Below are positions 62,258-62,902 of a DNA stretch of 64,000 nucleotides, in pieces. The translations under genes were made by a program, and so were the position numbers. Under the pieces are notes generated by a model. That model had not been told where the DNA came from, did no database searches, and saw only the letters and a list, made by a program, of their open reading frames with translations. This stretch comes from Escherichia coli (lineage in GTDB: Bacteria; Pseudomonadota; Gammaproteobacteria; Enterobacterales; Enterobacteriaceae): NCBI RefSeq assembly GCF_030013595.1, contig NZ_CP122768.1. One strand, written 5' to 3'. Positions within the stretch are counted from its first letter, which is position 1. Every line of letters begins with the position of its first letter.

Positions 62258-62902
62258 ATGGCTCGCACAAAACTGAAATTCCGGCTGCATCGGGCAGTGA
62301 TTGTCCTGTTCTGTCTTGCCTTGTTAGTGGCGCTGATGCAGGGAGCGTCATGGTTTAGTCAAAACCACCAGCGACAGCGTAATCCACAGCTGGAAGAACT
62401 GGCCCGCACCCTGGCGCGTCAGGTGACGCTGAACGTTGCACCGCTGATGCGTACCGACTCACCGGATGAAAAACGCATTCAGGCGATCCTCGATCAGTTA
62501 ACGGATGAAAGCCGTATCCTCGACGCGGGCGTGTATGACGAACAAGGCGATCTTATCGCCCGTTCTGGCGAAAGCGTCGAAGTGCGCGACCGGTTGGCGC
62601 TCGACGGCAAAAAAGCGGGCGGCTATTTTAACCAGCAGATTGTCGAACCTATTGCCGGGAAAAACGGACCGCTCGGCTATCTGCGCCTGACGCTCGACAC
62701 CCATACGCTCGCCACCTAAGCCCAACAGGTGGATAACACCACTAACATTTTACGCCTGATGTTGCTGCTCTCACTGGCAATCGGCGTAGTGCTGACCCGC
62801 ACGCTGCTACAGGGTAAACGCACCCGCTGGCAGCAATCGCCCTTCCTGTTAACCGCCAGCAAACCGGTGCCGGAAGAGGAAGAAAGCGAGAAAAAAGAGT
62901 GA
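62258..62902 (+). pseudogene. ytjB: ytjB (smp) membrane protein gene interrupted by an in-frame TAA
   Basis: 153-aa ORF stops at TAA 62717-62719; the same frame continues 60 codons (AQQVDNTTNILRLMLLLSLAIGVVLTRTLLQGKRTRWQQSPFLLTASKPVPEEEESEKKE) to TGA 62900-62902; the full span is 645 nt, the K-12 ytjB length. Confidence 0.7.

Follow-up and report, generated by a model that had tools for sequence, protein, structure and literature searches.

The gene ytjB (smp) occupies positions 62258–62902 on the plus strand of the window, the whole 64-kb stretch of Escherichia coli DNA that was analysed. It is flanked by the divergent upstream neighbour serB (61184–62152, minus strand), whose annotation was transferred from the isolate HCP5S3_I2 and from K-12, and by the co-oriented downstream gene lplA for lipoate-protein ligase A (62930–63946, plus strand), which is intact, identical to lplA of HCP5S3_I2 and free of internal stops. 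The gene order serB–ytjB–lplA is common to the window, HCP5S3_I2, TUM2330 and K-12. The list of open reading frames and their translation place the ytjB start at ATG 62258, followed by 153 sense codons and an in-frame TAA at 62717–62719 with the context ACC TAA GCC, the truncated reading frame covering 62258–62719 on the plus strand. Beyond this TAA, a translation of the same frame remains open for 60 sense codons until TGA 62900–62902, and the total span of 645 nt equals that of K-12 ytjB (b4387, 4624145–4624789). The first-pass annotation had described a truncation at codon 154, a further 60 codons encoding a hydrophobic segment and an acidic tail, and a span of K-12 length; translation, hydropathy and the comparison with b4387 bore out each of these points, and all coordinates were correct.

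The closest complete genomes are those of the two pig isolates HCP5S3_I2 (pig faeces, UK) and LCP30S3_I5. Compared base by base over the 645 nt of ytjB, the window differs from HCP5S3_I2 only by a G-to-T exchange at position 62717, which converts GAA (Glu154) into the ochre codon TAA at 62717–62719 on the plus strand. Codon 154 is GAA in K-12, HCP5S3_I2 and Res13-Lact-PER13-34, as the first-pass annotation had guessed for the wild-type codon, and also in TUM2330; both outgroups, K-12 and TUM2330, have G at 62717, and the stop is thus the derived state. Between K-12 and the window, the gene differs at 12 nucleotides, of which 11 are synonymous, and the protein sequence is altered by the stop alone. 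This indicates that ytjB was under purifying selection until the mutation occurred, with a constraint on the whole of YtjB, and the sequence comparison thus points to a gene that was functional until recently. The same exchange also produces a TAG on the antisense strand (62716–62718, minus strand), which ends a mechanically called 78-codon reading frame at 62716–62952 (minus strand); neither genome annotation nor Rfam nor Pfam supports a gene there.

Distribution and origin of the stop allele

In megablast searches with the 645-nt gene, ytjB was present in 5,424 of 5,426 complete E. coli genomes, but identical in none of them, the best matches having one mismatch. A megablast test with a 71-mer was suggestive, yet its outcome was also compatible with a T allele that carries a second mismatch, and we therefore used a 31-mer centred on 62717, with which the 28-base exact word required by megablast is forced across the site. 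The T-bearing 31-mer was found in none of the 5,426 complete E. coli genomes, whereas the G-bearing 31-mer, used as positive control, was found in 5,073 of them, with 5,065 exact matches. A naturally two-part gene is thereby ruled out, and the prospect considered in the first-pass annotation, that K-12 or other strains share this stop, did not materialize.

The exact 153-residue product is nevertheless already deposited in GenBank as STE03254.1, 'Smp protein precursor [Escherichia coli]'. We found this protein on 78 contigs from NCBI and Logan (127 index blocks), the longest of which has 3.43 Mb. The stop allele itself was seen in three independent assemblies, namely GCA_021649585.1, a draft from NCBI, and the Logan assemblies of SRR30668519 and SRR10947500, which differ from each other by 2–5 SNPs over 14.5 kb; the draft GCA_021649585.1 is identical to the window across 11.7 kb, including the derived base of the window at position 57669. 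As these independent assemblies share the T and differ at other SNPs, the stop represents a heritable allele that is fixed in one clone which has since diversified, and its persistence in a diversified clone implies that it is at least tolerated. The E154* allele is a convenient clonal marker, since none of the 5,426 complete E. coli genomes searched carries it, while it occurs on 78 contigs from drafts or SRA data. As a separate observation in the carrier assemblies, the gene calls for yjjW (radical-SAM activase) give 234 residues in two of them (12352–13056 in the coordinates of these contigs) and 287 residues in the other (18155–19018 of its contig), which suggests either another lesion or the use of a different start in the same clone.

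We are confident that this situation is best explained by a genuine, recent and clone-specific nonsense mutation, a single G-to-T exchange at 62717 that turned Glu154 of YtjB into an ochre stop. The mutation arose after the clone split from the pig isolates HCP5S3_I2 and LCP30S3_I5, and on this branch the 64 kb accumulated about a dozen substitutions in all, most of them non-synonymous, without visible selection. The remnant behind the stop (62720–62902, plus strand), which comprises codons 155–214 and the original TGA, does not differ from HCP5S3_I2 at any of its 183 nt; its frame is intact because there was too little time for further decay. An overlapping structured RNA was also considered as a cause of the intact downstream sequence and was discarded, as Rfam gave no credible structured RNA between 60000 and 64000, where the single match was a chance miRNA hit with an E-value of 0.88.

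The truncated YtjB and its possible function

Translation is expected to end at codon 153, and the resulting 153-residue product would still contain the first transmembrane helix (TM1), a signal-anchor of residues ~8–32 (62279–62353, plus strand) that is evident from hydropathy windows 6–34, with means of 1.8–2.4, and that is preceded by the basic N-terminus MARTKLKFRLHR. The second transmembrane helix (TM2) of residues ~161–186 (62738–62815, plus strand; Kyte-Doolittle 19-residue means of 1.7–1.95) would be lost, together with what follows it, which is a KR-rich stretch (QGKRTRW...) and then an acidic tail (PEEEESEKKE; ...PVPEEEESEKKE). The predicted product is therefore a single-pass protein in which nearly the whole periplasmic SMP_2 domain is tethered by TM1, and which has neither TM2 nor the cytoplasmic basic/acidic tail. 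The complete YtjB architecture of TM1, periplasmic domain, TM2 and charged tail (~214 residues) is thus not encoded by the window allele. With the stop restored to Glu, YtjB matches the Pfam family SMP_2 (PF10144) at residues 1–160 with 231.7 bits (cutoff 28.9), and the truncated product still matches it at residues 1–153 with 220.4 bits, retaining profile positions 1–152 of 159. The NCBIfam YtjB equivalog profile NF008419 gives 424.6 bits for the restored protein and 294.4 bits for the truncated 153-residue protein, at a cutoff of 279. This profile matches residues 1–214 of the full-length YtjB (positions 1–214 of 219), and since it spans all 214 residues, the conserved architecture of the family includes the part that is lost. 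The 57-residue fragment downstream of the stop matches no Pfam family, a search for solved structures of YtjB returned none (best E-value 0.7), and the literature that we found names the gene only in passing, with no functional study among it.

Judged solely by its lack of TM2 and of the tail, the truncated YtjB is most likely impaired, unstable or non-functional, and ytjB is probably an incipient pseudogene in this clone. A partial function is possible, as the product exceeds the equivalog cutoff and would keep nearly the whole periplasmic domain. Among the alternatives to a loss of function, the one that we take most seriously, albeit as an unlikely one, is that the truncation is tolerated, with the TM1-anchored SMP_2 domain being the functional unit and TM2 and the tail being dispensable or modulatory; the shortened form might even be mildly advantageous. 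The product does retain 152 of the 159 SMP_2 profile positions, its 294.4 bits do pass the equivalog threshold, and the clone in which the allele became fixed has gone on to diversify. Against this stands the inclusion of TM2 and the tail in the full-length equivalog profile, and also the fact that the amino acids of both are the same in K-12 and in this lineage, although ytjB differs at 11 synonymous sites. Furthermore, the loss of TM2 turns a two-pass topology into a single-pass one, and persistence in one clone would be equally expected of a neutral or slightly deleterious hitchhiker. Considerably less probable is the stronger version of this idea, according to which the allele is no null allele because the TM1-tethered periplasmic form retains or changes the activity and is favoured in a clone that has relatives among pig isolates. 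If it were true, the clone would offer a natural domain dissection of a conserved enterobacterial protein that resembles a CHASE8-type sensor module without output.

It is very improbable that ytjB has instead become a split gene, in which translation stops at 62719 and reinitiates at GTG 62729 (or at ATG 62759), and in which two polypeptides rebuild YtjB. An in-frame GTG does lie 10 nt past the stop, and the 57-codon reading frame that begins with it (62729–62902) spans TM2 and the tail. However, none of the in-frame starts GTG 62729, ATG 62759 and TTG 62762 is preceded by a Shine-Dalgarno sequence, the calculated duplexes having −0.5, +1.9 and +0.6 kcal/mol, in comparison to −6.9 and −5.6 kcal/mol at the genuine starts of ytjB and lplA, respectively. 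Reinitiation downstream of the stop was set aside for this reason. The gene callers also left the 57-codon frame uncalled on independent contigs, and one recent point mutation, rather than selection for a gene in two parts, produced the whole layout.

The stop could also have consequences for the downstream gene. It leaves 210 nt untranslated before the start of lplA, and the C/G ratio is 1.1–1.6 across most of this region. Due to this excess of C over G, some Rho-dependent polarity on transcripts that read through from ytjB into lplA is conceivable. Our scan of 62100–63100 for consensus promoters and terminators gave nothing above the shuffled expectation and no consensus lplA promoter; the evidence for a promoter comes from the literature: a binding site of the RpoD holoenzyme for lplA has been assigned to the ytjB–lplA spacer (Shimada et al., 2014; PMC3946193). 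With lplA having this promoter of its own, as taken from that study, the effect of the ytjB stop on lplA is probably small.

Divergence of the window and the remaining alternatives

The annotation of HCP5S3_I2 could be transferred onto the window, 56 genes being wholly contained in it. The window is collinear with HCP5S3_I2 throughout, and the differences consist of 22 SNPs, a 1-nt indel, a 6-nt indel and one IS186 insertion. Nineteen of the SNPs are coding (14 missense, 1 nonsense and 4 synonymous). When all SNPs were polarised with K-12 and TUM2330 as outgroups, 11 were assigned to the branch of the window and 7 to that of the relative, with 4 being ambiguous. Transitions account for 8 of the 11 SNPs on the branch of the window and transversions for 3, and just 2 of the 11 are of the type G:C to T:A. 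Nine of the 11 SNPs are coding, and these comprise 6 missense, 1 nonsense and 2 synonymous exchanges, that is a non-synonymous to synonymous ratio of 7:2. The derived missense exchanges are Q178K in caiE (1155), V77G in caiF (1499), V75M in dapB (7428), D120G in thrB (42398), T379A in ettA (57669) and A240V in espX1, and several of these are conserved housekeeping genes. We compared these counts with a random-mutation model in which every codon of the genes of the window was mutated. The model predicts 68–73% missense, 23–29% synonymous and 3.0–3.6% nonsense exchanges, and a probability of 0.27–0.62 for at least one nonsense exchange in 9–19 coding SNPs. The counts on the branch of the window agree with this model, which indicates a recent and essentially unselected divergence, and a single stop requires no special cause.

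Two of the structural differences from HCP5S3_I2 may be recorded here. The 6-nt insertion AATATG at 28152–28157 is a tandem duplication of adjoining sequence. Only 3 nt separate it from the downstream start codon of an ompK-like gene (27388–28149, minus strand), which places it in the ribosome-binding region of this gene. The IS186 copy at 28941–30284, between mokC/hokC and dnaJ, is 99.93% identical to IS186A of K-12; its GC-rich target and the duplicated flank GGGAGTGATCCC are exactly as in the case of K-12 IS186A, and the site is empty in HCP5S3_I2. This could reflect either an insertion hot spot that was used independently or an old polymorphism.

The first-pass annotation had pointed to a second single-codon TAA lesion in the window, located in a fimbrial usher gene, and had raised a mutator background or a systematic error as a possible common cause. 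The first part stands, since the usher gene and ytjB are the only ones among the 56 genes that contain internal stops. The usher lesion, considered here for comparison and separate from that of ytjB, is an exchange of CAA for TAA at codon 604 (20467–20469, plus strand) of the gene at 18658–21108. HCP5S3_I2 has the same usher stop, labelled 'internal stop' by PGAP, together with an intact ytjB, and TUM2330 has CAA at codon 604 and an usher gene that is frameshifted elsewhere. As the usher stop is shared with HCP5S3_I2 and the ytjB stop is not, the two lesions arose at different times, the one in the usher gene being the older. The upstream fimbrial chaperone gene (17962–18645) is intact in the window, with an A7 run at 18397–18403, and also in TUM2330, whereas that of HCP5S3_I2 is annotated as 'frameshifted' with an A6 run, owing either to genuine slippage in the homopolymer or to a misassembly of the HCP5S3_I2 genome. 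The fimbrial operon is decaying independently in several lineages.

The second part of that proposal did not withstand the comparison. We consider it highly doubtful that a mutator or another systematic process that generates in-frame TAA codons connects the two lesions. Two internal TAA stops within 64 kb may seem suggestive, and G:C-to-T:A transversions, the class to which GAA-to-TAA belongs, are raised in mutM and mutY mutants. However, the two stops belong to different mutational classes: the ytjB stop is a G-to-T transversion, and the usher stop is a C-to-T transition at 20467 that predates the split from HCP5S3_I2. The branch of the window is dominated by transitions in the 64-kb window, as detailed above, and its few G:C-to-T:A exchanges are no sign of such a defect. 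Also, a nonsense exchange among 9 coding SNPs and the share of TAA are in line with random mutation, as TAA accounts for 34–44% of the nonsense outcomes in the model, and two TAA codons out of two stops are expected 11–19% of the time. The other 54 genes of the window have no internal stop. On the basis of the SNP polarisation with two outgroups and the random-mutation model, a mutator or shared cause was thus rejected within the 64-kb window, and the independent, clone-specific point mutation in ytjB stays the preferred explanation.

Readthrough of the stop, with full-length YtjB still being produced thanks to an ochre suppressor tRNA or to a high natural readthrough, has hardly any probability in our view. 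What speaks for it is the intact downstream frame, and we found no direct support; the frame is explained by the youth of the mutation, as the rest of the gene equals that of the sister strain. No tRNA gene is present within the 64-kb window, which excludes a suppressor tRNA in this region. Of the natural stop codons of the 56 genes, 43 are TAA, 11 TGA and 2 TAG, and with so many genes ending in TAA, an ochre suppressor that works efficiently would do widespread damage. UAA also generally shows the least leakage among the stop codons of E. coli. The share of TAA in the window looks somewhat higher than the ~63% across the entire E. coli genome. Finally, a sequencing or assembly error, with GAA as the true codon and the T as a mere consensus mistake, might be suspected from the absence of the allele in all complete RefSeq genomes and from the G of the closest relatives, but it is ruled out, as far as one can be certain, by the identical truncated protein on the 78 contigs and by three assemblies from different datasets that carry the T and differ at other sites, and a direct reading of position 62717 reveals no homopolymer and no GATC or CCWGG motif.

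Relation to known pseudogenes and sensor modules

The ytjB allele resembles the lineage-specific nonsense pseudogenes of E. coli and Shigella in that a one-base exchange has created a premature stop in a conserved, non-essential gene with an intact frame downstream, in that the allele is restricted to one clone, and in that it is accompanied by the high ratio of non-synonymous to synonymous exchanges that characterizes recent divergence. What is particular to ytjB is the position of the stop just past the periplasmic domain and before TM2, which makes it a clean domain-level truncation and not a short fragment. The usher pseudogene of the same window (18658–21108) also results from one in-frame TAA, and the gene concerned is non-essential as well, but the lesion belongs to a different mutational class and is older. 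Beyond the correct annotation, the finding has little importance: the record of this strain should mark ytjB as truncated or as a pseudogene (E154*), and the stop should neither be polished away as an error nor be taken as a clue to a mutator. Should a phenotype of YtjB become defined, the clone provides a natural C-terminal truncation, devoid of TM2 and tail, with which it can be tested.

Within the YtjB/Smp/AhpA family (PF10144; NF008419, 'YtjB family periplasmic protein'), the protein that is obtained when the stop is restored to GAA is 100% identical to K-12 YtjB, whereas the window allele encodes only residues 1–153 of 214 and thus neither TM2 nor the C-terminal tail. There is also a weak likeness to the N-terminal module of DgcN/YfiN, as YtjB residues 8–185 align with DgcN residues 6–173 from TM1 to TM2 (E-value 9e-7), and, as in the CHASE8-type modules of DgcN/YfiN and related histidine kinases, two transmembrane helices flank a periplasmic domain. 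The scores stay far below the curated thresholds, with 23.7–24.9 bits for CHASE8 (PF17152; cutoff 27, E-value 6e-5) and 28 bits for the DgcN profile (cutoff 325). Unlike DgcN/YfiN and the histidine kinases, YtjB lacks any output domain of the HAMP, GGDEF or kinase type, and its tail comprises just ~28 residues. This comparison suggests that YtjB may represent a sensor-like module with two transmembrane helices and no output domain, which resembles the CHASE8-type modules without being a member of that family.
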